Made by a program: the position numbers and the translations under genes. A stretch of DNA of 64,000 nt from contig CBDEFM010000002.1 in NCBI GenBank assembly GCA_965237415.1, positions 2,976,001 to 3,040,000 of the forward strand, written 5' to 3'. This document shows positions 42,629 to 58,105 of the stretch, in pieces. Source of the DNA: Alphaproteobacteria bacterium (lineage in GTDB: Bacteria; Pseudomonadota; Alphaproteobacteria; UBA828). How positions within the stretch are numbered: position 1 is the stretch's first letter; every line of letters begins with the position of its first letter. The notes under the pieces are model-generated. The model did no database searches. It had not been told where the DNA came from and saw only the letters and a list, made by a program, of their open reading frames with translations.

Positions 42629-43669
42629 CTACCCTGTCGGCAGCCGGCCTGTTCGTGGCGGAGTTTCTCGTGCCTTTATGCTGACCTTGAAATCGAAACG
42701 ATGGTTTTCGGTGTTGCCGACAATGCGGACGTTGTCCTTGGTTTCCATATCGACGGCGGCGCCGAGTCCGACCATGACCGCTTCATCGAGGATTACTCGG
42801 GCGGCCTTTCCGAGGGCGTGGGCGTGCGGAACGTCGATCATTGCCCGCATCCCTGCTTCGCCCACGTTCACTTCGAAGTATCTCCACTGACCAAAAGTAT
42901 GTCTTGCGGCCTGCAGCGTTTCGGCGATCTCCGGACAATCTGCCGCTATCCGTCTCCTGCCGGGCTCCGGCAGGTCGTCATGGAGCTCGATGAGATCGTG
43001 GGTCTTTGCTGCTTCATCTCCGCAGGTAAGACAGATGGCTTTCATGGCAAGCTCGCAGGCGAAGGCCGCAGTCATCGCTTCGATCAACGTGCTACCCATC
43101 CGGTTTTTCAGCCTGTTGCCGGAATAGTTCGGGTCATCCCTGAATCCTTCGATGGACAAGGGGAAGGCCAGGAATCCGTCATCCTTCACCTGTACGTCTG
43201 GCATATGGGCGACGGACATCTCGTCGGGATAGGAGATCTCCGCCACGCCCGCCATCAGGACATGGGCTTGGATGAAAAGCAGACCAGGCGAGCCCAGAGG
43301 GAAGTCGTGCCGGTTCAAGCGGTTTCGCTTTTTCCCCTCCGACAGCTTCGTTTGAACACGTGCCGCGAGCTCTGCCTCCGAGAGGCTGTCCGGTTCCGGA
43401 AAGATCTTTTGGACAAAATTCGCGTCGCCGCATTCAGGCGCTCGTCCCGATTGCATGTTCATGAGGTTGAGCGCGGTTCGATCCTGCATCTCGTTGAATT
43501 CGTCTCGCGCCTTCTCTCCCTCAGTCTTGGTCCCGCATACGCGGCACCTGATTCCTGTCCAGCCGCCATTGTCTTCCCGTCGTGCAAGCAGGCTGCCCCA
43601 ACAACGCGTGCAGCGACCCTTGAGCTTGACCTTGGTTTCCTTGTCCAGGAACGAGAAGGTTGAGGACAT
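42629..43669 (-). CDS. HEPN-domain protein with N-terminal Zn ribbon
   Basis: CTRC..CRVC; AFACELAMKA...KTHDLIELHDDL...F.QWRY HEPN-like pattern; start uncertain. Confidence 0.65.
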   Translation of the reverse strand: MSSTFSFLDKETKVKLKGRCTRCWGSLLARREDNGGWTGIRCRVCGTKTEGEKARDEFNEMQDRTALNLMNMQSGRAPECGDANFVQKIFPEPDSLSEAELAARVQTKLSEGKKRNRLNRHDFPLGSPGLLFIQAHVLMAGVAEISYPDEMSVAHMPDVQVKDDGFLAFPLSIEGFRDDPNYSGNRLKNRMGSTLIEAMTAAFACELAMKAICLTCGDEAAKTHDLIELHDDLPEPGRRRIAADCPEIAETLQAARHTFGQWRYFEVNVGEAGMRAMIDVPHAHALGKAARVILDEAVMVGLGAAVDMETKDNVRIVGNTENHRFDFKVSIKARETPPRTGRLPTG

Positions 43670-44682
43670 GGTGTCCAAATCCACGCCCCATTCGATCGGG
43701 ACGTTCGCAATGGAGCCGTCCTTTGGCGGGGACGGAACAGTACGGCGAGGCCCGCTGAAGCGATGGAGAAGCGGGGCCAGACGCTGTGCGGTCGCACCGA
43801 CGACGTTGGAGAGCGTGGCAATGGGAGATGACCAGGTCAAAGGACAGGACTCGCGGTAGTCAAACGGTTGTTGGCCGGTTCACGACCTCAATATGGGGAC
43901 GGGCAACAGTGGCTCAATCGGCGCTCCGAACAAGAATCGTAGGGTTGGCCCAAACCCGCAGACCCGCAATCATCGAGAGCTTCGAGGCAAGCCGAGCCCA
44001 ACGGCAGCGCAGATGCTGGTGCAACCGCTGAGGCTTGACAGTTCGGCGATCGCCGGCCGGAGATAGGGGGCCGTCAGTGCCAGGCGCCTCGCCGTCTTTC
44101 TGCGGCGGTTATGGAGCCCGCCCCGTTCATTGAAATTCCGTATTCGATCCGGCGGCCGGGATGTGCCAATCGCGGCACCATGCTGGAACGGCGGAGCGAC
44201 CATGTGAAGTTCCTCCCGGCGGTCGCGGCCGGCGGTGTCGGCACGGCCACATGCGCCGCGGGCATGGATTCGCCCGGCAAAGGCATTTTTTTCCCGGACC
44301 TGGAACTGTTAATGGAGTCGGTCCAGCACTCGGCGGTCCGAGCGTCCGCCGCGGGAGGCAGGACCATGACGGGGCGCGCGCCGCACGAGACCTGGGCAGC
44401 CGGATCCTTCCGGGTCCGCCCGGGCCGGTCGGAGCGCGAACCGGCCGGATCTCGGCGGGCCGGAGCGGAGAGCTTCGGGAGCGGGTTTCCATGCGGGAAT
44501 CGCCCCGGCGACACCGGGCGTCGGCGACCGCAAGATCGCGCCCGAGGACCGCTCCGGGGCGGGGCCGGGAGCTTGGGCGCCGCCGGGCGCGTCCCCGGGG
44601 CCGGTCCGGCCCGGACAAAGCCTTGCGTGACAACGGTTTGCGCTGATTTTCGTGCGCTGCGGCACCGCTCTGCGCGGTGCTC

Positions 44683-44718
44683 GATTGCGCTCGATAACTG
44701 TCGTTATCAACCGTAATC
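44683..44718. other. lox-like recombination site L (14-8-14)
   Basis: gattgcgctcgata-actgtcgt-tatcaaccgtaatc; right arm has 3 mismatches. Confidence 0.85.
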
Positions 44719-44883
44719 TTGTCAACCCGGTTTCGCGCCCGCCGGCCTGCGGTGCCCTCCGCGAGATGCAGTCACCCGCCGCCGGCGGGCGCTACGTCGT
44801 TGTAATACAGGGTTTTTCCGGGGTCCGGCAAGGCTCGCGCCGGCCGCGCAGCCGGGACACCGGGCGCACCGGCGCCGCAAATT

Positions 44884-44901
44884 ATTGCGCTCGATAACTG
44901 T
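44884..44901. other. lox-like half site (accessory binding site?)
   Basis: attgcgctcgataactgt, identical to the left arm and first 5 spacer bases of site L. Confidence 0.75.
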
Positions 44902-45025
44902 TTTGTGAATCCGCGCCCGGCGGGGAGCGCGTGACCCGGGTCCGCCCGCCCGCCGGCCTTCGCCGGCACATGATCCTCTTATGGGATCATAAACATTCGA
45001 CCATGCCTGTACACCCCGGTGCGGG

Positions 45026-46009
45026 TCACTCGCGCCGCTGCAGCCGGGCGAGCTGCGCCGCCCCGCTGCGCCGCGCGAGCAGCCGCTCGCCGTAGCGGTT
45101 GACCATGGCGGTGGACTTCCAGCGCCCGGCCTGCAGGATCGCCGGCAGCTCGATGCCGGCGGCGATCATGTCCTGCGCCGCGCCCACGCGCGCGCTGTGT
45201 CCCGAGAGGCCCTGCACCACCGTTTCCGGCAGCCCGGCGCGGCGCGCCATGGCCTTGAGGATGCGCGGCACCTGGCCGGGCGGAAGTCCGCCGCCGACCC
45301 GCCCGCCCTTGCCGACCGAGCGGAACAGGGGCCCGCTCGAGACGCCGCCGCGGTCGAGCCACGCCCGCACCAGCCTCACACTGTCCGGCCCGACCCAGAC
45401 GATCTCGCCCATGCCCTCGCAATCGGTCTTGCTGCGGCGCACCAGGAGGCTGGCGTCGCCGCCCATTTCCTCAAGCAGGTCGGGCACTTGCAGGGATACG
45501 AGCTCGGCGCGGCGGAGCAGCGTGTCGTAGGCGACGGCGAGCAGGGCGCGGTTGCGGTCGTCGATCGGGCGGTCGCCCGCAGCCTCCACCAGGCGCTGGC
45601 GCAGCGGCCAGGTCAGCCCGTGCGCCTGGCCCTGGCGGCGCCCCCTGCAACGGTGCATGCGCTTGAGCGCGAGCCGCACGGCCGGGCTCTTGAGCGTCCC
45701 GGTGCATCCAAGCACCCGGTGGGCGACGGCGATGCTGGCGACGTAGCGGCGCACCGTTGCCGGCGCCCGGTGCTCGGCCATGGCGTCGACGAAGGCGGCG
45801 ACCGTCTCCGCCTTCGCCGGCAATGCCCTCTCCCCTCGCACGGCGCACCACCCGGCGTAGATCGCCAGATCGGACCTCACCGCCCGCTCGGTGTTGCTGC
45901 TGAACGCGTTGCGGGCCGCCCGGACAAAGGGTCCGAGCAGGTCCGCGAGCGCGGTCTCGCGTTCCGTTCCCGTCGCCTCCGAGACATCGAACGGGGGTTC
46001 GAAATACAT
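45026..46009 (-). CDS. Cre-like tyrosine site-specific recombinase
   Basis: RNRALLAVAYDTLLRRAEL, RRSKTD, SGHSARVGAAQDM, QAGRW..TAMVNRY parallel the Cre R/K/HxxR/W/Y residues; GGAGG RBS. Confidence 0.92.
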   Translation of the reverse strand: MYFEPPFDVSEATGTERETALADLLGPFVRAARNAFSSNTERAVRSDLAIYAGWCAVRGERALPAKAETVAAFVDAMAEHRAPATVRRYVASIAVAHRVLGCTGTLKSPAVRLALKRMHRCRGRRQGQAHGLTWPLRQRLVEAAGDRPIDDRNRALLAVAYDTLLRRAELVSLQVPDLLEEMGGDASLLVRRSKTDCEGMGEIVWVGPDSVRLVRAWLDRGGVSSGPLFRSVGKGGRVGGGLPPGQVPRILKAMARRAGLPETVVQGLSGHSARVGAAQDMIAAGIELPAILQAGRWKSTAMVNRYGERLLARRSGAAQLARLQRRE

Positions 46010-46045
46010 CAGCGCGCCTCCGGACCGTCCAAAACAGACCCCCCG

Positions 46046-46081
46046 GATTGCGCTCGATAACGACAGTTATCGAGCGCAATC
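46046..46081. other. lox-like recombination site R (perfect 14-8-14), inverted relative to site L
   Basis: gattgcgctcgata-acgacagt-tatcgagcgcaatc; spacer is the exact reverse complement of the site L spacer. Confidence 0.9.
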
Positions 46082-46316
46082 GGCGCGCGCGGCTCGTGCG
46101 GGCGCACTGGGGTCAGTTGGATTTCCGGCGCGTTGTCGCGGCCGGGCTTCTGCGGGGGAGTGAGCGATGACGGCGAGTTGGCGCAGGAACGGGATCGGAG
46201 CAGCAGCGCGGCGGGCGGGCGCACCGGCCAGACTGACTCTACCCCCCGCACACCGGGTGCACACCGGGTGCGCACCCTACGCAGCGCGCGTGCTCGACAG
46301 CCCGGGGAAACCTGAC

Positions 46317-49300
46317 GTGACCGGTGCGGGCGCGCCGGCCCGGGGCGTGAGGCCCGCGCCGGCGCCGGCGGGCGCGGCGCGGCGTGCCGGAGCGCGCCTG
46401 GCCTCCTTCCTCCTGCTACTGCTCGCCGCGGTCTGCGCCTTTTCCCCGCGGGCCGAAGCCCAGCCGGCGGCGATGGACAGCACGCCGATGGTGACGACCT
46501 TTGTCGACAACACGGCGGAGAGTCGCTTAGGCGCGTCCGATATCTTTACCGATGGTGAATCCGCTCAATCCTTCACCACGGGCATGAACGCCGGCGGCTA
46601 TGTTCTCTCCAGCATCGAGATCGTAAGCACTGCGCAGAACAAAGCGTTTTCCGTAGAGGTTCACACGACCGATGCCGACGGCGGGCCCGATACCCTGTTT
46701 GCCACTCTGACCGCGCCGAGCGACTTTTCGGTCGCGGACGTCGAATTCACCGCGACCGCGAACACGGTGCTCGCGGCGAATACGACCTACGCCGTTTTTC
46801 TACCGGAACCGTCGGGTCTGGACGCATTCCTTTCGGCCACGCTGTCGAACACCGACGGCGGGAGCGACGGCTGGGGCATCGGCGACGCTTACCACTTCTA
46901 CAACACAGGTACCAGTGCGTGGCAGCTCGCTGGTAGCGGCCGTTCGCTGCGCATGGCGGTGAAGGGCACCGCGGTGGCGTCGTCAGGCTCAAACCCGGCG
47001 ACGGGCTTGCCGGCGGTGACGGGGACGGCGCGGGTGGGTTCGACGGTGACGGCGTCGACGGCCTTGATCCGGGACGCCGACGGGCTGACGGGCCCGGCCT
47101 ACGAATACCAGTGGCTGCGGGTCGACGGGGGCTCGGACACGGAGATTTCCGGGGCGACCGGGCGGACCTACGAACTGACCGCGGACGACGCCGGCAAGCG
47201 GGTCAGGGTGCGGGTGAGCTTCACCGACGACGCGCTGAACGAGGAGACGCTCACCAGCTCCGCCTTCCCGAGGACCGGGACGATCGCCATGCCGGTGCCG
47301 GCGATGACGGACCCGAGCGACCTGCTCTCGGCGACGCTGACGGTGAAGGATGTCGCCTCCCAATATCTCGGCTGCAGCGGCGGCACCTCGGCCAGTCAGG
47401 TTTCCTGCAAGAACACCGACGTGCTGACCGCGCGCGGTTTCACGGTCCCCGGCACGACCACGACCCGCAACATCGACACGATCCAGCTCAGCACCGGCGG
47501 GGGGCTCATCGTGAGTTTCGACGGATCGTTCACCGACGAGCAGAAGGCGCGGCTCGCGATCGCGTTCGGCACCACCGAGCTGGATTTGAGCGACGCCACC
47601 TTCTCGGGCAACGAAGCCCGGTGGACCGGCACCGGCCTCAGCTGGACGGCCGACGACACGGTCGCGGTGAAGGTCAAGGACCGGGGCACCGGGGACGTCA
47701 CGCCGCCGGCGTTGAACTTGCAAGGGAGTTTCGTCAACAGTCATGGCCAAAATTTTTTCCTGCAATTCAATGAGGTACTGGACGGGGACAACCTTCCACC
47801 ACCGAGCGCCGTCACCGTCACGGTCGACAGCAGTCCGGTCGCGGTGACCGGAATTTCCCGACTTTCAGGGACCTTGATTGTCGACGTTTCGCCCGTCATC
47901 CTGGCGGCCCAGACGGTCGTCGTCACCTACACCGACCCGACCCCGGGCGACGACGCGCAGGCCATCCAGGACGCGGCCGGCAACGACGTCGCCACCTTCG
48001 AGAACGTGGCGGTGAGAAACGGATCCACCGTCACCGGCGTGCCGGGCGCGCCGACGGGTCTGACGGCGACGAAGGCCGCCGGCGCGAACCGCGGCACGCA
48101 GATCGACCTTGCCTGGGACGAGCCGTCGGACACCGGCCTTTCGCAAATCTCCGGCTACCGGATCGAGTGGTCGGCCGACGGCAACGCGCCCTGGGCCGAT
48201 CTGGTCCCGGACACCGGCTCGACGGACAGGACCTACCCGGACAGCGGTCTCCCCTCGCCGACCACCCGCCACTACCGGGTCTCGGCGATCAACCAACAGG
48301 GCACCGGCAGCCCGTCCGGCATTGCCGACGCCACCACCGACGATACCGTGGGGCCGGTGCTGGAGAGCCCGGAGGTCAGCGGGACCGGCACTCAACTCGA
48401 ATTGCGTTTCAATGAGGCATTTCCCAGCCCCGACGCGCCCCCGAAGACCGCTTTCACGGTGACAGCCGACGGCGCGCCTGTCGACATCGGACACACAGGC
48501 GTTACCGGAAACTCCGGTATTCTATTGAACGTACTCTCCCCCACCATCCGGCAGGGCCAGACGGTCGTCGTCACCTACACGGATCCCAATCCCGGCAGCA
48601 ACGACGCCACAGGGGTCATCCAGGACACGTCCGGCAACGACGCGGCGAGCTTCACCACCGGCGCGGGCGGCGTCCCCGCGGTCGTCAACAGCTCGACCCA
48701 AGCCCCCACCGCCCCCGGCAAGGTGCCGAACCTGGCGGCCGCGCCCGGCGGCGACACCAGCATCGTGCTGACCTGGGACCGGCCGGCCGACAACGGCGGC
48801 CGGGTCATCGAGAGCTACCGGATCGAGGTCTCCGAGGACGTCGACCCCCTCGTCTGGCAGGAGCTGGAGGACGAGCACGACGCGATGAAGGACGGCGCGA
48901 TCGAGCGGCGCTACGAGCATCCCGGGCTGGATCCGGCCACCACCCGCCACTACCGGGTCCGGGCGAAGAACGCGGTCGGCGACGGCGACTGGTCGGACGA
49001 GGACGGCGCCACCACCACCTCCGGCGCTCCGGACGCCCCGACCGGGCTGACGGCGACGCCGGGGCTGCCGTCGCCGCGCGACGGCACGACGCTGATCCGG
49101 CTCGGCTGGGACGCGCCTACGCTTGCGCAGGAGGGCGATTCGCGGATCACCGGCTACCGGATCGAGGTCTCCGAGGACGTCGACCCGCTGGTCTGGGAGG
49201 CGCTGGTGCCCGACACCGGGAACCGGAACCGGGTCTACCGGCACACCGGGCTTGGCTCGGAGGTGACGCGCCACTACCGGGTCTTTGCGATCAACGACGA

Positions 49301-52300
49301 CGGCACGAGCCTGGCCTCGGAGGTCGACAGCGCCACCACCCCCGACATTTTGGGGCCGGTGCCGGTCTCGGCGAGCGTGGCCGAGACGGGGACCAAGCTC
49401 ACGATCGTCTTCAACGAGATGCTCGACGGGACGGCGGCGAACCTGCCGGCGGCCGGGCGTTTCACGGTCCGGGCCGGTGACGGGGCGCGGTTCAGGATCG
49501 GCGGCGTCGCGGTGAGCGGCACGGACGCGACCCTGAGCCTGCACGCGGACTCCCCCGTCATCCGGACGGGGCAGGCGCTCACGGTCGTCTACACCGACCG
49601 CACGGCGAGCGATGACGCGGCCGGGGTGGTCCAGGACGACGACGGCAACGACGCGGCGGCGTTCACGCTCGGGCCGGGGCAGACGGTCACGGTGACCAAC
49701 GGCTCGAACGAGCCCGCCACCGCCCCCGGCAAGCCGCAGAACGTCGAGGCGGAGTCCGGCGGCGACGACCGGATCGTGCTGACCTGGGATGCGCCGGCGG
49801 ACAATGGCGGGCGGGCGATCGCGGACTACCGGGTCGAGGTCTCGACCGACGGCAACCCGCCCTGGACCGAGCTGGCCGCCAGCCACAACACGATGACGGG
49901 CGGCCGGTTCGAATACACCCACACGGGCCTCGGCACCGGCGACGTGCGCCACTACCGGGTCTCGGCGCGCAACGCGATCGGCCGCGGGTCGGCCTCGGAC
50001 ACCGAGATGGGGGTGGTCGACCTGAAGGGCCGGGTGGTCCTCTCGGCCGCCGCAGCGAGCGTCGCCGAGGGCGGCAGCGTCGCCTGGACGGTGACGGCGA
50101 CGACGGACGAGGACGCGCGGCCCGAGAGCGGCCTCCAGATGCAGGTGACGGTGGTCTCGGAGGACGGCACGGCGGCGGCGCCGGGCGACTACGCGGCGCT
50201 CGAGGCGGCCGCCGGGACGGTGACCTTCCGGCGCTCGGACTTCCATCGCCGGAGCGTTCAGGACGTCGGCTATCGCTGGGTGGCCGTGAAGAGGGGCCCG
50301 GTTGCGGTGGCGATCGCCGACGACGTCGAGGTCGAGGCGGAGGAGAGTTTCGCGCTCACGATGTCGATCGGCAGCGGCGGCACCAGCTGGGTGCGCGGCA
50401 CGGACCGCGTGGAGGTCGCGATCCCGGACACGGACGAATGGGGTATCGCGGTGGTGGCGGAGCCGGCCGGGATCGCCGAGGGCGAGACCCGCGAGGTCGC
50501 GCTGACGGCGCGCATCGTGCTCGGCGACGGGACCGTGCCGGCCGAGGATGCCTGCGTGGCGCGGTTCCCGGTGAGCGTGCGGCTCGAGACCGGGGGCACG
50601 GCGACGGCGGGCACCGACTACACGCTCGACGGGGCGCTCGACGGGCAGACGATCGCGGCCTGCGGGGCGGAGGCGAGCTGGCGGGTGACGCTGACGGCGG
50701 CGGTGGACCGGGTGGACGACCCCGGCGAGACGGTGGCGTTCGCGCCGGAGCTCGTCGAGGCGCCGGAGACCGCGCCGGCGTTGCAGGCGCCGGCGGCGGT
50801 GACGGTGGGCGAGTCCCGGGGCGTGGTGCTGAGCGCGTTCGCGCTGGACGTCGAGGAGGGCGGCGAGGAGAGCTACACGGCGGTGCTGACCTCGCGGCCG
50901 ACGGGGACGGTGAGGCTGACGCCGAGGGTGTCGGGCGACCCGGACGTGACGGTCGAGCAGCCGCGGCTGACCTTCACGCGGGACAACTGGAACCAGCCGC
51001 AGACGCTGACGGTGCTGGCGGACCAGGACCCGGACGACGAGGACGACGCGGCAACGATAAGCCACGGCGTGACGGGCGCGGACTACGGCGCCAACGGGGT
51101 GACGGCGGGCGAGGTGCGGGTCGCGGTTCTGGACGACGACAAGACCTTCGGCGTGATGACGGTGCGCCTGTCGGACGGGGCGGACGGTGCGGGCACGCAC
51201 GATCCGGCGCCGGCCGAGCATCACGGGGAAGCGTTCCACATCGCGCTCTGGTGGTCGGAGACGCGGACCCACGATTATGAGGCGCCGCGAAAGGCGATCG
51301 GTGCGGACCGGGCGATCCGGGTGACCGGGGCGGCGGTGGTCCCGGTCAGGGACGAGCACACCGGCAGTTGGACCCAGTCGCGGCTGCGCCTCAAGCTGAC
51401 CCCGGACGGGACGGACGACGTGACGCTGGTGCTGGAGCCGATGGACTGCAGCTACCCCGACTGGAGGCAGCCGCGGCCCGACCCGCACGCGCTCTGCGCG
51501 TGGCGCCGTGACGGCCTGGGGATCACGGGGCTCCCGGAGCGGGTGCGCTGGACGGTGCACGGCATCGGCGCCGCGCCGGCGGCGCCGCCGAACCTGACGC
51601 TGGGCACGGACGAGATCCTGACGGTGCAGGCGGACGTGGTGGATTCGCGGACGGTGCTGGTGGCGGGCTTCGACGCCGATCGGGACGCGTCGCACTGGCG
51701 GGTCGAGGCGCAGGCGCCGGGCGGCGACTGGAGCGGCGCGCGGGTCTGGCGGGGCGCGAAGCACGGGAGCCGGCACAACGTGCGGCTCGACGGGCTGGCG
51801 CCCGACGGCGCCTGGGCGGTGCGGGCGCGCTGGGAGAACCGCTACGGCGCAGGGCCGTGGGCGGAGGTACGGACGACCGACGGGGTGGCGCCGCCGGCGC
51901 CGCGGGGGCTCGCGGCCGCGCCGGGGCCGGACGGGCGCTCGGTGCGGCTTACCTGGAGGCCCGCGAGCGCGGCCTCGGCGGCGCGCTACCAGTACCGGCT
52001 GGGCCGGCTCGCGCAGACGATGGCCGGGGGCTGGCTCGACATCCCGGACAGCGGTCCGGGGGCGGCGCACCGCGCCTCGTTCACGGTCCACGGGCTGGAG
52101 CGGGTCTGGGAGATCAAGGCGCAGCTGCGCGCGGTGAGCGCGTCGGGCCGGGCCGGGGCGGCCTCGGCCGAGGCGCGGGTGCCGGCGGCGCGGCCGAGGG
52201 TGCTGGATGAGGGCGTCGCGCTGACGTCGGATCCCGGCGAGGACGGGCGCTACGGCATCGGCGACCGGATCGAGGTGGCGGTGACGATGAGCCGCCCGGT

Positions 52301-54269
52301 GCGCCACGAGGGAGCGGCGCCGGTGGTGAAGCTCCGGATCGGCAACGAGACGCGCGATGCGGCGCTGGTCCGCATCCGCCAGCCCGGCACGGCGGGGATC
52401 GGGGATTCGGGCTATGGCAGCGGCGACACGCTCGTCTTCGCCTACACGGTGCGGCAAGACGACGAGGACATGGACGGGATCGCGATCCCGGCGAACGGGC
52501 TGCGGCTCAACGGCGGGCGCCTCGTCGACGCGAGCCCCGGCGGCCGCGGCGACGCGGCGGCGGTCGGGCTCGGCCGGGCGCGGCACTTCCCGGGGCACCG
52601 GGTGCAGGGGGTGCTGCCGCGGGTCACGGGCATCGAGCGGCTCGACAACAAGGTGTGGGTGCATTACGAGCGCGACCTCCAGCCGTGGACGCTCGATCCG
52701 GTCCTCCGGACCGGCGCGCTCGGGGGGCAGTTCCACCCGGGCTACTCGTTGTCGAGGCCGGTCTCGCATGCGGTGATCGACGCCCGGATCGTGCGCGGGC
52801 GCGGCTGGTCGCGGAACTGCGGGCGGACGGAGACCGGCTGCCGGACGGTCCGGCTGACGCTCGGCAGGGTCCACCGCGACGCGACGGGCGGGCCGGGTCG
52901 GGAGGGGGGCTACGAGGCGCCCGAGCCGGGCGAGACGGTGCGGATCTCCTACGCGCCGAGCCCGCACCATGCGAAGTACCGGCTGCGCGACGCGGCGGGC
53001 AACGAGGTGCCGGGGTTTGCCCCGGAGGTGGCGGTGCATCTGGCGCCGGGCAGCGCCCCGGTGCTCGCGGTGGACGACGGCGCGGGCCGGGAAGGAGTGG
53101 CCCCGGTCCGGTTCACGGTGCGGCTGGTGCCGGCGGCGACGTCGGAGGTCACGGTGGACTACATGACCGCCGACATGCCGGCGACGGTGCGGGCGCCCGC
53201 CGGGCGGGCGACCGCGGGCGTCGACTACGAGGCGAAGTCGGGCACGCTGGTGTTCGCGCCGAAGGAGACGGTGAAGACGATCGAGGTGACGGTCCTCGAG
53301 GACACGGCGGACGACAGCGGCGAGGTCTTCCGGCTGTTGCTGGCCAACCCGTCGGGTGCGGCGCTCGGCGACGCCGTGGCGACGGGGACGATCCGGAACG
53401 ACGAGCTGCTGACGGCGGCCTTCGGGTCGCTGCCGCCGAGCCATGACGGGGAGACGGCGTTCACGCTCGGGCTCGCGTTCAGCGAGGAGGTGGCGGTGAG
53501 CGCGCAGATGCTGCGCGACGCGGCGCTGCGCGTGACCGGCGGGTCGGTGACCGGGGTGCGGCAGGTCGATGCCGCGAGCACCCGGCGCTGGGAGATCGCG
53601 GTCGCGCCGTCGTCGGACGCTGCGGTGACGGTGGCGCTCGCGCCGCAGGCGAGCTGCGATGCGGTCGGCGCGGTCTGCACCGAAGACGGTCTGGGGCTGG
53701 ACCGGGCGGCCGAGGCGGCGGTGCCGGGGCCGGCGGCGCTGGAGGCGCCGGCGGTGGCGGGCGTGGCGCAGGTGGGCTCGACGCTCGAGGCGTCGGTCGC
53801 CGGGACGCCGGGCGGCGCGGTGACCTGGCAGTGGCTGCGCGGCGTCGAGGAGATCGCGGGGGCGGACGCGTCCGCCTACACGCCGGTGGCGGCGGACGTG
53901 GGCGCGCGGCTCTCGGTGCGGGCCGGGCGCGGCGGCGCGGCGGCGACCAGCGCACCGACGGCGCCGGTGTGGCCGGCGCCGGTCAACCCGCCGCTCGCTT
54001 CGGGCGAGGAGGAGCTGCTGTCGGCGGTGCTGACGCTGGGATCGCTGCAATCCAGCGTCCCGCTCGGCGGCTATCCACGAGGCGCGCGGTTTCCTCACGG
54101 ATGCGGCTGCGCTCATGGACGCGGCAAGGGCCGCGCGGGTCTTCGTCGAGGTGTACGAGGAAATACCTGCCGCCCGCGTGCAGCGGATCGTCGAGCGCGA
54201 AGACATCGCCGACATGGTCGCCGTCCAGGCATATGCGGGATTCCTCCGGGGCGACGCGGCGGAAGCTGA
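46317..54269 (+). CDS. Giant secreted adhesin-like protein (FN3, SwmB-like, Calx-beta repeats), C-terminally truncated near 54075
   Basis: Signal peptide FLLLLLAAVCAFSPRAEA; repeated P.APTGL..L.W..P..GYRIE.S..TRHYRV.A.N (FN3), FNE.LD...V.YTD...QD..GND (SwmB), ATAGVDY..SGTLVF (Calx-beta); last ~65 aa are non-homologous; start approximate. Confidence 0.85.
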   Translation: MTGAGAPARGVRPAPAPAGAARRAGARLASFLLLLLAAVCAFSPRAEAQPAAMDSTPMVTTFVDNTAESRLGASDIFTDGESAQSFTTGMNAGGYVLSSIEIVSTAQNKAFSVEVHTTDADGGPDTLFATLTAPSDFSVADVEFTATANTVLAANTTYAVFLPEPSGLDAFLSATLSNTDGGSDGWGIGDAYHFYNTGTSAWQLAGSGRSLRMAVKGTAVASSGSNPATGLPAVTGTARVGSTVTASTALIRDADGLTGPAYEYQWLRVDGGSDTEISGATGRTYELTADDAGKRVRVRVSFTDDALNEETLTSSAFPRTGTIAMPVPAMTDPSDLLSATLTVKDVASQYLGCSGGTSASQVSCKNTDVLTARGFTVPGTTTTRNIDTIQLSTGGGLIVSFDGSFTDEQKARLAIAFGTTELDLSDATFSGNEARWTGTGLSWTADDTVAVKVKDRGTGDVTPPALNLQGSFVNSHGQNFFLQFNEVLDGDNLPPPSAVTVTVDSSPVAVTGISRLSGTLIVDVSPVILAAQTVVVTYTDPTPGDDAQAIQDAAGNDVATFENVAVRNGSTVTGVPGAPTGLTATKAAGANRGTQIDLAWDEPSDTGLSQISGYRIEWSADGNAPWADLVPDTGSTDRTYPDSGLPSPTTRHYRVSAINQQGTGSPSGIADATTDDTVGPVLESPEVSGTGTQLELRFNEAFPSPDAPPKTAFTVTADGAPVDIGHTGVTGNSGILLNVLSPTIRQGQTVVVTYTDPNPGSNDATGVIQDTSGNDAASFTTGAGGVPAVVNSSTQAPTAPGKVPNLAAAPGGDTSIVLTWDRPADNGGRVIESYRIEVSEDVDPLVWQELEDEHDAMKDGAIERRYEHPGLDPATTRHYRVRAKNAVGDGDWSDEDGATTTSGAPDAPTGLTATPGLPSPRDGTTLIRLGWDAPTLAQEGDSRITGYRIEVSEDVDPLVWEALVPDTGNRNRVYRHTGLGSEVTRHYRVFAINDDGTSLASEVDSATTPDILGPVPVSASVAETGTKLTIVFNEMLDGTAANLPAAGRFTVRAGDGARFRIGGVAVSGTDATLSLHADSPVIRTGQALTVVYTDRTASDDAAGVVQDDDGNDAAAFTLGPGQTVTVTNGSNEPATAPGKPQNVEAESGGDDRIVLTWDAPADNGGRAIADYRVEVSTDGNPPWTELAASHNTMTGGRFEYTHTGLGTGDVRHYRVSARNAIGRGSASDTEMGVVDLKGRVVLSAAAASVAEGGSVAWTVTATTDEDARPESGLQMQVTVVSEDGTAAAPGDYAALEAAAGTVTFRRSDFHRRSVQDVGYRWVAVKRGPVAVAIADDVEVEAEESFALTMSIGSGGTSWVRGTDRVEVAIPDTDEWGIAVVAEPAGIAEGETREVALTARIVLGDGTVPAEDACVARFPVSVRLETGGTATAGTDYTLDGALDGQTIAACGAEASWRVTLTAAVDRVDDPGETVAFAPELVEAPETAPALQAPAAVTVGESRGVVLSAFALDVEEGGEESYTAVLTSRPTGTVRLTPRVSGDPDVTVEQPRLTFTRDNWNQPQTLTVLADQDPDDEDDAATISHGVTGADYGANGVTAGEVRVAVLDDDKTFGVMTVRLSDGADGAGTHDPAPAEHHGEAFHIALWWSETRTHDYEAPRKAIGADRAIRVTGAAVVPVRDEHTGSWTQSRLRLKLTPDGTDDVTLVLEPMDCSYPDWRQPRPDPHALCAWRRDGLGITGLPERVRWTVHGIGAAPAAPPNLTLGTDEILTVQADVVDSRTVLVAGFDADRDASHWRVEAQAPGGDWSGARVWRGAKHGSRHNVRLDGLAPDGAWAVRARWENRYGAGPWAEVRTTDGVAPPAPRGLAAAPGPDGRSVRLTWRPASAASAARYQYRLGRLAQTMAGGWLDIPDSGPGAAHRASFTVHGLERVWEIKAQLRAVSASGRAGAASAEARVPAARPRVLDEGVALTSDPGEDGRYGIGDRIEVAVTMSRPVRHEGAAPVVKLRIGNETRDAALVRIRQPGTAGIGDSGYGSGDTLVFAYTVRQDDEDMDGIAIPANGLRLNGGRLVDASPGGRGDAAAVGLGRARHFPGHRVQGVLPRVTGIERLDNKVWVHYERDLQPWTLDPVLRTGALGGQFHPGYSLSRPVSHAVIDARIVRGRGWSRNCGRTETGCRTVRLTLGRVHRDATGGPGREGGYEAPEPGETVRISYAPSPHHAKYRLRDAAGNEVPGFAPEVAVHLAPGSAPVLAVDDGAGREGVAPVRFTVRLVPAATSEVTVDYMTADMPATVRAPAGRATAGVDYEAKSGTLVFAPKETVKTIEVTVLEDTADDSGEVFRLLLANPSGAALGDAVATGTIRNDELLTAAFGSLPPSHDGETAFTLGLAFSEEVAVSAQMLRDAALRVTGGSVTGVRQVDAASTRRWEIAVAPSSDAAVTVALAPQASCDAVGAVCTEDGLGLDRAAEAAVPGPAALEAPAVAGVAQVGSTLEASVAGTPGGAVTWQWLRGVEEIAGADASAYTPVAADVGARLSVRAGRGGAAATSAPTAPVWPAPVNPPLASGEEELLSAVLTLGSLQSSVPLGGYPRGARFPHGCGCAHGRGKGRAGLRRGVRGNTCRPRAADRRARRHRRHGRRPGICGIPPGRRGGS

Positions 54270-54279
54270 GGCCGCTCAT
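54075..54279 (-). pseudogene. Small hypothetical protein, 3'-truncated at the adhesin junction
   Basis: MSGLSFRRVAPEESRICLDGDHVGDV..; ATGA overlap with the DUF4326 gene. Confidence 0.5.
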
Positions 54280-54632
54280 GACGCGCTCCCGCCAGCTTGG
54301 GGCGCATCGCGTTCGGCGAGAATGCCAGCGGCCCAGGCCGCGGCGCGGGCCAGAACCTCGCCGTGGCAGGGCCGCGGAAGACACCAGCACGCGTACCAAC
54401 ATCCCGCGATTTCGGCGAGCTCTTCGAGCGCGATCTCGCCGGCGCGGACGCGGCGCCAGAGATCGACGCGGTAGCGCGCGATCACGTCTTCGCGCGATCC
54501 GTCTACGCCTACCCTGAACGGATTGCCCCATTTCGTGCGGCGATCGATCAGCACGGTGTTGTTGTGCACGTGAGCGTATTCGAACGCCTCGCGGAGCTTC
54601 GGTTCTTGCCTCAGATTGATGACGGCGCTCAT
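54276..54632 (-). CDS. DUF4326 family protein
   Basis: IDRRTKWGNPF, CWCLPRPCHGEVL. Confidence 0.88.
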   Translation of the reverse strand: MSAVINLRQEPKLREAFEYAHVHNNTVLIDRRTKWGNPFRVGVDGSREDVIARYRVDLWRRVRAGEIALEELAEIAGCWYACWCLPRPCHGEVLARAAAWAAGILAERDAPQAGGSAS

Positions 54633-54658
54633 GGACTCTCTCCTCTCTCCGGGTGGCC

Positions 54659-55696
54659 TTACCCGGCACTCCGCTCTCCTCTCCTCCCCGCGAAGCGGAC
54701 CAGCGGCGCGAGCCTGGCGCGGAGCGCCGGCGCACCGAGCGACGTGAGGTCGTCGTTGAAGTCGTTGCCCACGGGGACGACGATGGTGGCGGCGACGCCG
54801 GCCCGCGCAGAGCGCCGGGCGAGGCGCTCGGCCGCGAGCGCGCCGTCCGGATCGTTGTCCCGCGCGATGACGATGCGCGCGACGCCGGGCGGCGGCGCGA
54901 ACGCGCCGAGGCTGCCGGCCGACAGCGCCGCCGCGGCGCCGATCTCCGGCATGGCGGTGATGAGGGACAGCACCGTCTCGATCCCCTCGCCGACGACGAG
55001 CGAAGCGAGTCCGTCGGCGGGGACGGCGCCGAAGCGGACCGCATGACCGAAGATCCGCCCGAGCGCCTTGCGCGGGTTCGTGACGCTCGCCTTGGCCGGC
55101 CGGCGCGGGTCCAGCCAGGTGCGCTGGACGCCGAGGATGGCACCGTCACCCGAGCCTTCCCCGCCGTCGCCGGTGACGGCGGCGACCAGCGCCGGAAACC
55201 GGCGCACTGACGAGCCTTCGCGATAGCGAAGCTCGGGATGGAAGCGAAGCGCCGCGAAGCGGCAGCGCGACAGCCCGCGCGCGTGCAGATAGCGCTCGGC
55301 ATGGCTGCCGGCGATGGCGCGGCATTGCCGCCACAGGCGGCGTGCCGCCTCGGTGGCGTCGTAGTCGCCGCCGCTGTCTATCGCCGGCGCAGCCGGCAGG
55401 GCGAGGAAGGCGCGCGCCTCGTCGAGCGCCGCGCGCAGCGACGGCGCGCGGGTGCGGTGGCGGATGAGGTCGAGGAGATCGCCATGCTGCCCCGTCGCGG
55501 CATCGGTCCACTTGCCGGGCGTTCCCGAGCCGGAGAGGCGGACGAACAGCGAGCGGCCGCGGGCGCCGTCGAGATCTCCCGCCACCCAGTAGCGGCCGAG
55601 CTTGCGGCCGTGCGGGAGGTAGCGCCGGCAAACGGCTTCGGCCTGCAGGCCGAGCGCGGCGGCGATGCCGGCGGCGGGAGACGGTTCGTGCTGCAT
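54659..55696 (-). CDS. Toprim-domain primase-like protein (plasmid/ICE type)
   Basis: GKWTDAATGQHGDLLDLI, AERYL..RGL, GVQRTWLD, GEGIETVLS, ARDND.DG, DFNDDL. Confidence 0.85.
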   Translation of the reverse strand: MQHEPSPAAGIAAALGLQAEAVCRRYLPHGRKLGRYWVAGDLDGARGRSLFVRLSGSGTPGKWTDAATGQHGDLLDLIRHRTRAPSLRAALDEARAFLALPAAPAIDSGGDYDATEAARRLWRQCRAIAGSHAERYLHARGLSRCRFAALRFHPELRYREGSSVRRFPALVAAVTGDGGEGSGDGAILGVQRTWLDPRRPAKASVTNPRKALGRIFGHAVRFGAVPADGLASLVVGEGIETVLSLITAMPEIGAAAALSAGSLGAFAPPPGVARIVIARDNDPDGALAAERLARRSARAGVAATIVVPVGNDFNDDLTSLGAPALRARLAPLVRFAGRRGERSAG

Positions 55697-55882
55697 GCGG
55701 GACTCCTTCCGATCCGTGCGGGACGCCCGATACCGGCCGGCCTCCTCTCAGGCCGGCGCCGGAGGGCGAGCGGCCAGCGCGAGGCGCGGGCGCGCGGCCC
55801 GAACGGACCGGGCTCCCCATCGGCGGGATAGAAGAGGCCGGCGCGCGAAGCGCCGGCCGGGAAGGACGGGAGCGCGCGCCGG

Positions 55883-56386
55883 TCAGGCGCAGGGCGCGTC
55901 GGCAAGCCGGCCGACGCGTATCCGGCCGGTCCACGCGGCGGACCGCGCAGGGGCATCGCCGTCGCGCAGCTGCTGGCGCAGCTCCATCCAGAGCCGCCCC
56001 AGCACGTTCTCGCCGCGGTAGCTGTCGCCCGCCGGCTTCGCGCCCCACCAGGGGTCGCGGGTCGAGACCTCCACGATCGGGCGCTCGCCGGTGCGCGCCA
56101 GCGCGTCGTCGATCCCGGCCGCGTTGGCCTCGCGCTTCATGCGCAGCACCCAGCGCATCGCGTTCACGCGCTGCGCGTTCCAGCAGGGGTCCATGCCGAT
56201 GCCGGTGCCGCGCCCGATGCCGGCCGCCTCGCGCGCCGTCGGGGCGTTCACGATCCGACGCTGCACCTCCGGGGCGGCGCCGAACTTCGCCGCCTGGTAC
56301 AAGTGCTCCGACGTTGGAAACGACCACGGGCCGGCGAAGCGGCCCGCGCGCGCAGTGTTGGATCCCGGGCGGCAGGCCGCCCGGCG
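55883..56386 (-). CDS. NADAR (YbiA-like) domain; no start codon before the PTSEH motif, in frame with the macro-domain stop
   Basis: SN-x13-PTSEHLYQAAKF, MRWVLRMK, TGERPIVE..RDPWWG, GENVLGRLWMELR. Confidence 0.75.
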   Translation of the reverse strand, partial: RRAACRPGSNTARAGRFAGPWSFPTSEHLYQAAKFGAAPEVQRRIVNAPTAREAAGIGRGTGIGMDPCWNAQRVNAMRWVLRMKREANAAGIDDALARTGERPIVEVSTRDPWWGAKPAGDSYRGENVLGRLWMELRQQLRDGDAPARSAAWTGRIRVGRLADAPCA

Positions 56387-56842
56387 TTACCGTCGGGCAG
56401 GTTCGTGGATGACGATCGAGACGCGCTCGCATGGCGCGAGGCGGTCGACCAGCAGGGACCGGACCGGGGGCCAGGGCAATCCGCCCAGGCCGCATCCGAG
56501 CGGCGGGATCGCGACGGAGAGGATGGCGCGGCGGCGGAGGATGCCGGCGAGGTCGTCGAGGCCATCGGCGATGTCCTCGATGCGGCTGCGGTCGCGCCAG
56601 TGGCGCTTGGTCGGGAAGTTGACGACGAAACGCGGCCGCTCGGCGCCGGTGTCGAAGACGAAGCAGCGCCGGGGCCGGACCTCGCGGCGCGCGCAGGCGT
56701 TCCGGTAAGCCTCGAAATTGGCCGGGAAACGATGCCTGAACTGGAGGGCGAGTCCCTTGCCCATGACGCCGACGCAGTTGACGGGATTGACGAGGGCCTG
56801 GCAACCGGAGTCGAAGATGTTGCCCTGGGTGAAACGGATCAT
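56387..56842 (-). CDS. DarG-like macro domain (ADP-ribose glycohydrolase)
   Basis: GNIF..ALVNPVNCVGVMGKGLALQF, NFPTKRHW (DarG catalytic Lys context), PPLGCGLGGL.W. Confidence 0.9.
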   Translation of the reverse strand: MIRFTQGNIFDSGCQALVNPVNCVGVMGKGLALQFRHRFPANFEAYRNACARREVRPRRCFVFDTGAERPRFVVNFPTKRHWRDRSRIEDIADGLDDLAGILRRRAILSVAIPPLGCGLGGLPWPPVRSLLVDRLAPCERVSIVIHEPARR

Positions 56843-56891
56843 GGCGTAACTCCTGGCAGGGGAAGATTGAAGAAGACCGGCGGCGCCCGGC

Positions 56892-57476
56892 TCACGGACG
56901 ACCGGCGCCGGAAGCCAGCGTTCGGAAGGTGGCGGAGACGCGGGTCGAGCGGCGGCGCCCGCCGGCGGTCCGGTCGATGCCGTGCATCCATGCGGTGCGC
57001 GCGGGGCCCGCGAGCACCAGCACGGAGCGTCGGGGCAGCACCGCGACCTCGTCGCCGGGAAGTGCATCGCGGGCGTAGGGGCGCACGGCGCGGCGTCGGA
57101 ACTGCATCGGCCAGTCGTCGGCGAGCGAGAGCGACGCCACGACCGGGCCGAAATCGGCGTGGTCGGCGTGCATCCCGATGCCCTGGCCGGGGCGGTACTC
57201 GTTGACGATGCACTGCACCGGGAGCACGCCCCCGAAATGCTCGCGCAGCCGCTCGGCCATGATCTCCTCCCAGCGCGGGAACGGCGCGGCGGGGACCGGG
57301 CGGCTCGCGCCCCGGTAGTCGTAGCGGTAGCCGTAATGCTGCACCCGGCGGTTCAGCTCGGCGAGCCAGGGCGCCTCGCCGATGCGCTGGAGGATGCGGG
57401 CCTCCTCGGCCGGGGTGACGAAGTCGGGGACGATGACGGCCCCCTGGGCGAAGACGCTCGTGGTGTCGCGGGTCAT
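56892..57476 (-). CDS. AlkB-family Fe(II)/2OG dioxygenase
   Basis: RRVQHYGYRYDY, QCIVNEY.PGQGIGMHAD, WMHGI, RVSATFR. Confidence 0.9.
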   Translation of the reverse strand: MTRDTTSVFAQGAVIVPDFVTPAEEARILQRIGEAPWLAELNRRVQHYGYRYDYRGASRPVPAAPFPRWEEIMAERLREHFGGVLPVQCIVNEYRPGQGIGMHADHADFGPVVASLSLADDWPMQFRRRAVRPYARDALPGDEVAVLPRRSVLVLAGPARTAWMHGIDRTAGGRRRSTRVSATFRTLASGAGRP

Positions 57477-57652
57477 GCTCTCTCTCCCGATGCAAGCGAA
57501 CGCCTTAGACACGCTTCCCTCCTCCTCCGGCAGCGGAGACGCACCGGAGGGTCATCGCAGCGGGGGACTCCAGGCCGTTTGCAAAAGGGGGGCCGGCGCG
57601 GAGGCACCGGCCCCAGTCGGGAGGGAGGAAACGAAACGATGACGACCGATCG

Positions 57653-58105
57653 CTAGAACGGAATTTCGGACCCGTCGTCGATATCGGCCGGAGCGGCGGC
57701 GCCGGTGTCGCCCGCCATGGCGGGGTCGGCCTGCGCCGGGGCACCGTTGCCGTTCGGCTTGTCCAAGAACTGGACGCGTCCGCCGGGGACGAGCAGGATC
57801 TCGGTGGAGAACCGGTCGCCGTCCTCGTCCGTCTTCGACCAGCGCCGCGTCTGCAGCTTGCCGTCGATGTAGACCAGGCGGCCCTTGGTGGCGTGCTTGA
57901 CGAACATGTCAATCAGCCCGTCCTGGAAGGTGACGACCCTGTGCCACTCGGTCTTGTCGACCTTGTCGCCGGTCTGGCGATTTATGTAGCTCTCGTCGGT
58001 CGCGATGCTCAGATTGGCGACGCGGCCGCCGCTCATGAGCTGGTTGACGGTGACGTCGGCGCCGAGGCGGCCGATCAGCTCGACCCTGTTGAGTCCGAAT
58101 GCCAT
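57653..58105 (-). CDS. ssb: Single-stranded DNA-binding protein
   Basis: LNRVELIGRLGAD, TEWHRVV, GKLQTR.W, acidic tail ending EIPF. Confidence 0.95.
   Translation of the reverse strand: MAFGLNRVELIGRLGADVTVNQLMSGGRVANLSIATDESYINRQTGDKVDKTEWHRVVTFQDGLIDMFVKHATKGRLVYIDGKLQTRRWSKTDEDGDRFSTEILLVPGGRVQFLDKPNGNGAPAQADPAMAGDTGAAAPADIDDGSEIPF

Follow-up and report, generated by a model that had tools for sequence, protein, structure and literature searches.

A 64,000-nt stretch from an Alphaproteobacteria bacterium (the window; C2:2976001-3040000 of a 4.75-Mb, two-contig genome, G000) contains the gene of a predicted Cre-type tyrosine recombinase that is enclosed by two palindromic, lox-like sites in inverted orientation. 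Site R lies 36 nt upstream of the recombinase start codon and site L ∼310 nt past the stop codon; a half-site, M, stands between the gene and L, and the reading frame of a giant surface protein runs outward on the R side (Table 1). This unit, the cassette, is analyzed here together with its relatives as a candidate self-inverting switch.

Table 1. Positions of the features discussed, in window coordinates unless a locus is named
Feature	Position	Strand	Remarks
Site R	46046-46081	.	arms 46046-46061 and 46066-46081, core GACA 46062-46065; perfect palindrome
Site L	44683-44718	.	outer arm 44683-44698, core TGTC 44699-44702, inner arm 44703-44718
Half-site M	44881-44909 (arm 44884-44898 on +)	-	inside sigma-70-like promoter TTCACA-17-AATAAT reading toward L
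Candidate split promoter through L	44697-44725	-	TTGACA 44725-44720, 17-nt spacer formed by the inner arm, GACAGT 44702-44697 (core plus 2 nt)
Predicted Cre-type tyrosine recombinase gene	45026-46009	-	327 amino acids (aa)
Leader	46010-46045	-	36 nt between R and the start codon, conserved, GGAGG ribosome-binding site; 25 loci compared
Giant surface-protein gene	46167-54269	+	2700-aa frame, divergent from the recombinase; proposed switch target
L-flank	43841-44682	-	∼840 nt outside L, no credible open reading frame (ORF), conserved in relatives
Second-layout segments	L041:2141-2533; L078, gene end +113 to +505		two full sites, matched inverted cores

A predicted Cre-type recombinase between inverted lox-like sites

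Two 36-bp lox-like sites around the recombinase gene had been reported in an initial annotation of the window, and both are present where that annotation placed them. R (GATTGCGCTCGATAACGACAGTTATCGAGCGCAATC) is a perfect 16-4-16 palindrome with GACA at its center, and in L (GATTGCGCTCGATAACTGTCGTTATCAACCGTAATC), which has TGTC as its core, the outer arm is perfect and the inner arm deviates at three positions. The 14-8-14 division originally proposed is valid, in that the 8-nt spacers are exact reverse complements, but the asymmetry of L and R is confined to the central 4 nt, and the arms measure 16 nt. The two 4-nt cores are likewise reverse complements of each other. The 15-nt arm occurs in the window in four exact copies, apart from the L inner arm at three mismatches; with up to three mismatches allowed, eight matches are found in the window versus 1.34 expected, a number reached in none of 100 shuffles. 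M consists of an arm plus TGT (44884-44898), is an exact arm copy oriented as L, and lies 200 nt away from L. The site pair is very probably real, and L and R are likely the cognate sites of the enclosed recombinase. The original list of elements was right about L and R and overlooked M, three other cassettes in the genome, and the link to the adjoining giant gene.

The enclosed protein matches PF00589 (E value, 2.6e-15), and its best solved relative is Cre (phmmer E value, 4e-27), with residues 31 to 312 aligned to Cre residues 32 to 330, that is, over nearly the full length and both domains; the next solved family, XerD, reaches just 6e-4. Identity to Cre is low. R166, K194, H271, R274, W297, and Y306 align with the stretches of Cre that bear its catalytic residues (R173, K201, H289, R292, W315, and Y324, as given in PMC10250229), and all six are present. 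The PF00589 match, the Cre alignment, and the six paired residues bear out the Cre-type catalytic motifs that had been read from the translation. No NCBIfam model reached its cutoff for the recombinase: the XerC model scored 35 bits (cutoff, 335), XerD 34 (330), and the XerA/integron-type model 27 (220), so that membership in these families failed, as did membership in the serine invertases (Hin/Gin/Cin), the recombinase domain found being PF00589 only. With a catalytic set, full-length similarity, and a palindromic arm-spacer-arm target near the gene, the protein is, as judged from its sequence, a Cre-type tyrosine recombinase.

The genome carries four such cassettes, namely, A (in the window), B, C, and D. 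Cassette B (C2:3124707-3126103; L001:6707-8103) is inverted relative to A and has the same arms and core. The two share 83% DNA identity over the gene and R, and 80% identity at the protein level; between the gene and L, recognizable conservation is limited to the sites, with the order R-gene-M-L kept. The R sides of A and B face each other, with 102.6 kb between them, and recombination between the two cassettes could invert (R × R, L × L) or delete (L of A × R of B) ∼100 kb. Cassettes C (C1:297366-298280; L052) and D (C2:2142580-2143473; L053) encode proteins 68 to 69% identical to that of A and have their own arm variant, the cores TGTT/AACA, one full site per side, and a half-site with their own arm. 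A giant frame stands head-to-head with cassettes A (2,701 codons) and C (3,072 codons; C1:298315-307530). On the R side of cassette B, the place of the giant gene is taken by a truncated P4-type integrase (Arm-DNA-bind_3 and SAM-like domains; L001:5073-6092). Elsewhere in the genome, C2:3839073-3839439 is an 80% identical copy of window positions 44108 to 44473, in the L-flank, with no arm motif nearby; it may be a leftover of a lost cassette.

The cores of the two sites change together

The loci collected for the family were de-duplicated to 49 distinct full-length genes and classified by one strict full-site rule. Full sites on both sides of the gene were found at 35 loci, and in 34 of these the two cores, upstream and downstream, are exact reverse complements of each other; the remaining locus (L080) has mismatched cores. 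At one further locus (L078), both full sites, with matched cores, lie downstream of the gene. An upstream site only was found at five loci, a downstream site only at two, and no site at six. The matched cores fall into seven types: TGTC (18 loci), TGTT (6), TATT (5), TATC (2), and TTTC, TTTT, and TGTA (1 each). The strict rule drops L021, L036, L041, and L047, where looser inspection finds matched cores; a looser site pattern gave false mismatches at L045, L047, L071, and L072, and the strict census was used instead.

On a maximum-likelihood tree of 41 genes, from which L040, L050, and L066 (no sites) as well as L020 and L078 to L082 were left out, the core changes at least 12 times among the loci with both sites. 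Even paralogs of one genome differ in core, for example, L013 and L014. In WIN_B, L005, and L014, the bases flanking the core are asymmetric yet matched between both sites, which fits an exchange region of 6 to 8 nt. Tyrosine recombinases need identical overlap regions. Because the overlaps must be identical and the cores covary, L and R of one cassette are expected to recombine with each other and, given that the cores are inverted, the product of such recombination would be an inversion. Core covariation, a comparative observation, thus provides indirect but strong support for L × R recombination, and we regard it as probable that the inversion occurs.

A fixed cassette layout with a patchy distribution

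The protein search scored 8,000 candidates and returned 2,689 matches, the best 120 of which are 76 to 98% identical and nearly all 327 aa long. Relatives were drawn from genome contigs (30 loci) and metagenome contigs (12 loci), in addition to whole-genome searches. The genome-contig loci come mainly from metagenome-assembled genomes (MAGs) labeled Alphaproteobacteria, Rhodospirillales, or Defluviicoccus and include four Pseudomonadales records (L020, L021, and the fragments L030 and L031). When the homolog loci were searched for the palindrome, a check that the initial annotation had proposed, the layout of full site, gene, half-site, and full site was recovered, and the order R-gene-M-L recurs at constant distances in relatives from several genomes and metagenomes. 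In the direction of the gene, the conserved anatomy begins with a full site that spans −72 to −37 relative to the start codon and continues with the 36-nt GGAGG leader, the gene, and, after the gene, a hairpin. Past the stop codon follow M (at ∼96 to 145 nt), ∼170 nt of poorly conserved sequence, a TTGACA, and a full site at about +305 to +345. Nearly every relative has M, even the distant paralogs L052 and L053. The arms vary between lineages, changing together with the protein lineage, and the arm of M matches the arms of its own locus.

The family is patchily distributed: of 20 other genomes of the genus, 4 have it, and it was found in none of 80 further genomes searched and in 3 of 81 genomes around G101. 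G101 is itself a MAG with two truncated and eight full copies, several of the latter having a common core, and many family members sit on short contigs. Plasmid-borne homologs in named isolates (Methylobacterium, Roseomonas, Azospirillum, and others) do not exceed 50% identity. The flanks of two of these homologs were scanned. The one in Methylorubrum extorquens DM4, on p1METDI, has just one palindrome, at −72, and no downstream palindrome, and for Methylobacterium radiotolerans pMRAD01 the scan found no flanking palindrome, only a G+C-rich palindrome inside the gene. These plasmid homologs look like an ordinary Cre/lox-type arrangement, from which the enclosed cassette form may derive. Decayed copies occur as well: in several relatives (L024, L025, L027, L028, L048, L051, L067, L074, and L075), only the 3′ part of the recombinase gene is left, with M, L, and the L-flank intact. 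In two of these, L028 and L067, the gene is cut off where an element has inserted that matches the duplicated 444-aa ORF of L016.

Probable traces of recombination and the orientation observed

The closest relative of the window gene, L003 (85% identity), has a hybrid upstream site, in which the usual inner R arm and leader are joined via the core to an L-type outer arm. This site continues directly into ∼200 nt of L-flank in inverted orientation. Such a joint is what an L × R inversion would be expected to leave, and L003 is the only relative to show one; its second joint has been lost to deletion. Apart from L003, similarity between R-flanks and L-flanks was limited to insertion sequence or simple-repeat artifacts.

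A second layout is found at L041 and L078, which are 70% identical over 495 nt. Here, no site precedes the recombinase gene, which lies outside a ∼390-bp segment bounded by two full sites that follow the gene at +113 and +470. The cores are again matched and inverted (TGTG/CACA and TGTC/GACA). The sites enclose ∼320 nt with a TTGACA at one end and, at the opposite end, the reverse complement of the leader and the first recombinase codons. This layout looks like an evolutionary bridge between switches with the recombinase inside and those with the recombinase outside. L041 had also been considered as a fully inverted locus, and this was rejected: the R-flank match rested on a (GCCT)n tract, and the layout is shared with L078.

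Eight public sequencing runs were listed for the region, all of them as Logan contigs and none of RNA. The orientation of the cassette was checked in the contigs of four runs (X1 to X4), which are short pieces derived from a mixed community. L is bridged by X2 record 11 and R by X2 record 14 and X3 record 22, in each case in the reference arrangement. In addition, contigs of X1 and X4 join position 44392 to 45026, skipping 633 nt that comprise part of the L-flank, L, M, and the stretch up to the recombinase stop codon; this joint may stem from a related strain or a paralog.

Candidate promoters at the L end

Of the 35 loci with two-sided sites, 28 have a TTGACA at a distance of exactly 17 nt from the L core and 4 more have it 1 nt off, and none of the 35 has it at the mirror position inside R. 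The core, read in the L orientation, has A at position 2 in 34 of these loci and at position 4 in every one; the two correspond to positions 2 and 4 of a −10 box. The presence of TTGACA at one end only suggests, from sequence comparison, a promoter directed outward, which an inversion would turn toward the giant gene: with the core identical in both sites, the predicted promoter would be rebuilt at R, facing that gene. A promoter scan of the region called two sites versus 0.0 expected. Among its calls is TTCACA-17-AATAAT at 44909-44881, with 10 of 12 matches and the M arm as its spacer. A recombinase bound at M would sit on this predicted promoter, which also reads toward L.

The flanks of the cassette

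The giant ORF contains fn3 (E value, 2.2e-37), SWM_repeat (7e-28), and Calx-beta (1.9e-17) domains, and its third-position GC content is 0.91. At 17 of 22 loci examined, a frame longer than 700 aa reads outward from a start no more than 700 nt beyond R; the frame lengths are cut by the ends of the loci. The first ATG of the giant ORF is preceded by GGGGGAG, and a signal-peptide-like stretch lies near residues 75 to 97 (46167-46450). Translation may in fact begin at an internal GTG; the 5′ untranslated region after R would then be ∼265 nt long. Of the features by which invertons are recognized, the locus has inverted repeats with a nearby dedicated recombinase and a flanking surface-structure gene.

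Simple repeat tracts occur near the giant-side site in five loci: (GCCT)5-17 in L007, L008, L015, and L041 and (GGAGCCG)6 in L047. The tracts lie 75 to 92 nt outside R in L007, L008, L015, and L047 and, in L041, 233 nt into the stretch scanned beyond the downstream site. Such tracts are typical of phase-variable genes and suggest that slipped-strand phase variation operates here in addition to inversion. In the window, no tract of this kind is present, but Logan contigs show small indels at 46242-46297. Past the giant gene, window positions 54000 to 57900 are multicopy, with dozens of 70 to 93% identical copies in the genome and the genus, and are probably composed of insertion sequences.

On the other side, the L-flank is 65.8% identical to that of L002 over ∼800 nt and has weaker matches to others. 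No frame in it has a high third-position GC content, Pfam finds nothing for its shadow ORFs, and across relatives, in which the conserved L-flank spans ∼800 nt, indels are not multiples of 3. Because of the missing high-GC frame and these indels, the L-flank is treated as noncoding. Rfam gave no credible match in window positions 43700 to 46500 (two matches were far below gathering scores) and none in the L-flank of L013. In several relatives, the L-flank is followed by a ∼285-aa gene with a weak outer membrane beta-barrel match (PF13505; E value, 1.1e-4, below the cutoff). In the window, a 403-aa ORF (42629-43840, minus strand) with a weak HEPN match (E value, 7.9e-4, below the cutoff) lies in a lower-GC stretch (∼0.60), where relatives have the end of the L-flank and the beta-barrel-like gene; this stretch is probably a later insertion.

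A proposed toggle and its alternatives

In the mechanism that we propose, the recombinase would bind the arms, pair L with R, and, like Cre at loxP, exchange strands within the short matched core, thereby flipping the ∼1.36-kb segment. Outward promoter elements would be provided at the L end only, by the TTGACA 17 nt from the core, with the core serving as −10, and by the promoter-like site over M. In the present orientation, transcription would exit via L into the conserved leader of ∼0.8 kb, after which relatives have the small outer membrane beta-barrel-like gene. Inversion would reconstitute this promoter at R, from where it would read toward the giant fn3/Calx-beta gene. From this arrangement we infer promoter activity, the genes that would respond, and inversion on physiological time scales. 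The cassette is accordingly read here, with moderate confidence, as a self-contained invertible unit that acts as a phase-variation toggle for giant adhesin-like genes, and the balance tips, if slightly, toward its working as an expression toggle for the flanking surface-protein genes.

Several observations weigh against this reading. The three mismatches in the inner arm of L in the window could lower the activity of that site, and the cores of L080 (TCTC versus GCCA) do not match. The consensus scan did not call the TTGACA promoter because its second hexamer, the proposed −10, is weak and matches at just 3 of 6 positions. No promoter of the recombinase itself was found, and cassettes B and D have no giant gene on the R side. 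All 17 distinct relatives classifiable on both flanks share one orientation, with the giant gene on the R side, in a flank census that used nine reference loci and in which many loci had no flank match. Finally, the Logan contigs of the four runs contain no inverted form and no strand-changing joint at L or R, a weak negative given that such contigs drop rare variants. If the cassette switches, one state strongly dominates, as is common among phase switches. The original claim of a self-inverting segment is partly supported, by the matched inverted cores, their repeated change, and the L003 joint, and it falls short on orientation, the reference form being the only one seen in contigs and in the 17 relatives.

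Inversion could also take place without any regulation of the flanking genes, in a selfish or self-regulating module that sets the expression of its recombinase or brings about rearrangements between cassettes. Since the leader behind R is just 36 nt, there is no room for a promoter of the recombinase's own; transcription must therefore enter from outside and would change upon inversion, as such a module would have it. The inverted placement of A and B, which have the same arms and core and could invert or delete the 102.6 kb between them, points in the same direction, as do the genomes with eight full copies, several of them sharing a core, and the patchy distribution. A purely selfish module, however, would need neither the head-to-head placement with giant genes nor the one-ended TTGACA and the conserved L-flank, and we consider this explanation unlikely. 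Even less probable is a segment that does not invert, in which L, M, and R would serve as binding sites of the operator or resolution type: R would be the ancestral lox-like site, used in autoregulation or in resolving replicon dimers, and L and M would be additional operators. The distant plasmid homologs, among them that of p1METDI with its single palindrome at −72, the overlap of M with a promoter-like site, and the observation of one orientation only are compatible with such a role. Mere binding, however, does not require the central 4 nt of two sites 1.3 kb apart to be reverse complements, yet they are so in 34 of 35 loci through at least 12 changes, and the L003 joint falls exactly at the core.

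The cassette is also multicopy, patchy, and present in Pseudomonadales genomes, with many members on short contigs, and in G000 a truncated P4-type integrase adjoins R of cassette B and multicopy insertion sequence-like repeats follow the giant gene. These features would suit a 1.4-kb insertion sequence-like element with 36-bp terminal inverted repeats, or a mobile island of ∼105 kb bounded by A and B. Conservation, however, extends beyond both sites, into the L-flank for ∼0.8 to 2.3 kb and into the R-flank and giant gene, so that the repeats are not the edge of the conserved unit. That the conserved unit exceeds the 1.4-kb cassette argues against an insertion sequence-like element, as do the lack of a target site duplication at the cassette ends in the window and the fact that each end is a complete two-arm site. 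An insertion sequence with terminal repeats was rejected on the conserved flanks and the missing duplication, and mobility in either form is very unlikely as an account of the locus. Integration of a circle through a single site was rejected as well: it would yield direct cores, whereas those of the cassette are inverted.

Relation to known recombination systems

Natural Cre sites serve P1 circularization and dimer resolution. Like Cre/loxP, the expected strand exchange at the cassette sites would take place in a short asymmetric core whose orientation sets the outcome, activity here being predicted. Unlike at loxP, two inverted full sites and a half-site enclose the gene, the arms measure 16 nt with only 4 asymmetric central nt, and the locus is chromosomal and lies beside a giant gene. 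With Cre/loxP, Dre/rox, Vika/vox, and the YR series, as these are described in PMC10250229, the cassette shares a two-domain tyrosine recombinase, the Cre catalytic set, and an arm-spacer-arm palindrome within 100 nt of the gene. In that work, ∼500 Cre-type recombinase/palindrome pairs were predicted from palindromes within 1 kb of Cre-like genes, and several were validated; the cassette family may already be among the predicted pairs (PMC10250229).

In function, the described systems that come closest are the invertible promoters fimS, hyxS, and ipuS of Escherichia coli (FimB/FimE/IpuA family), of which ipuS controls the autotransporter adhesin UpaE (PMC6083910). In these systems, as here by prediction, a tyrosine recombinase inverts a short promoter segment next to an adhesin gene, and the recombinase gene is adjacent, one ipuS repeat even lying inside ipuA (PMC6083910). 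They differ, according to the same report, in having inverted repeats of 7 to 9 bp and the recombinase gene outside the segment (PMC6083910), whereas the cassette has 36-bp lox-like palindromes, a Cre-type enzyme, and, in most loci, the whole gene inside the segment. Furthermore, the proposed −10 is here the crossover core. The L041/L078 layout, with the recombinase outside its ∼390-bp segment, has the fimS/hyxS/ipuS architecture.

The H segment of Salmonella (Hin/hix) carries the invertase gene and an outward promoter inside the segment and drives a surface protein gene in one orientation only. Hin is a serine recombinase that requires Fis and an enhancer. The cassette resembles this system in that the recombinase gene and the proposed outward promoter ride inside the segment, and it differs in having a tyrosine recombinase (PF00589). 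In the TnpI/IRS system of Tn4430, a tyrosine recombinase acts with a core site and extra single binding motifs beside its gene, and TnpI resolves cointegrates between direct sites in this Tn3 family transposon. An accessory motif is likewise present here, M beside L, but there is no transposase and there are no transposon ends. A full-text literature search turned up no report of a Cre-type recombinase that lies between its own inverted lox-like sites beside giant genes; the lists of predicted pairs of PMC10250229 lie outside that check.

Implications for giant surface proteins and for the family

As a source of tools, the family would supply putative recombinase/site pairs from nature in which both cores have diverged in step, amounting to an experiment of nature on the specificity of spacers and arms. 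Since hundreds of Cre-type pairs were predicted earlier and several of these validated (PMC10250229), the gain for engineering practice is moderate. The recombinase and sites of the window are a candidate for the orthogonal engineering pair envisaged in the initial annotation.

For the family as a whole, a more specific proposal can be made tentatively: its members would be Cre-type split-promoter invertons, each with the recombinase inside its own segment and the core as −10, toggling expression between a giant adhesin-like gene on one flank and some gene on the opposite one, and the at least seven mutually mismatched cores, together with several arm variants, would make them ready-made orthogonal pairs. 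If this is true, several switches could work independently in one cell. To our knowledge, little has been reported on how giant surface proteins are regulated. If the reading of the cassette as a toggle is correct, it would extend Cre-type promoter inversion to environmental Alphaproteobacteria (MAGs labeled Defluviicoccus, Rhodospirillales, and Alphaproteobacteria) and to giant surface proteins, by an unusual design in which the recombinase would be a passenger of its own switch, a half-site would lie over a promoter, and a promoter would be split across the crossover site.

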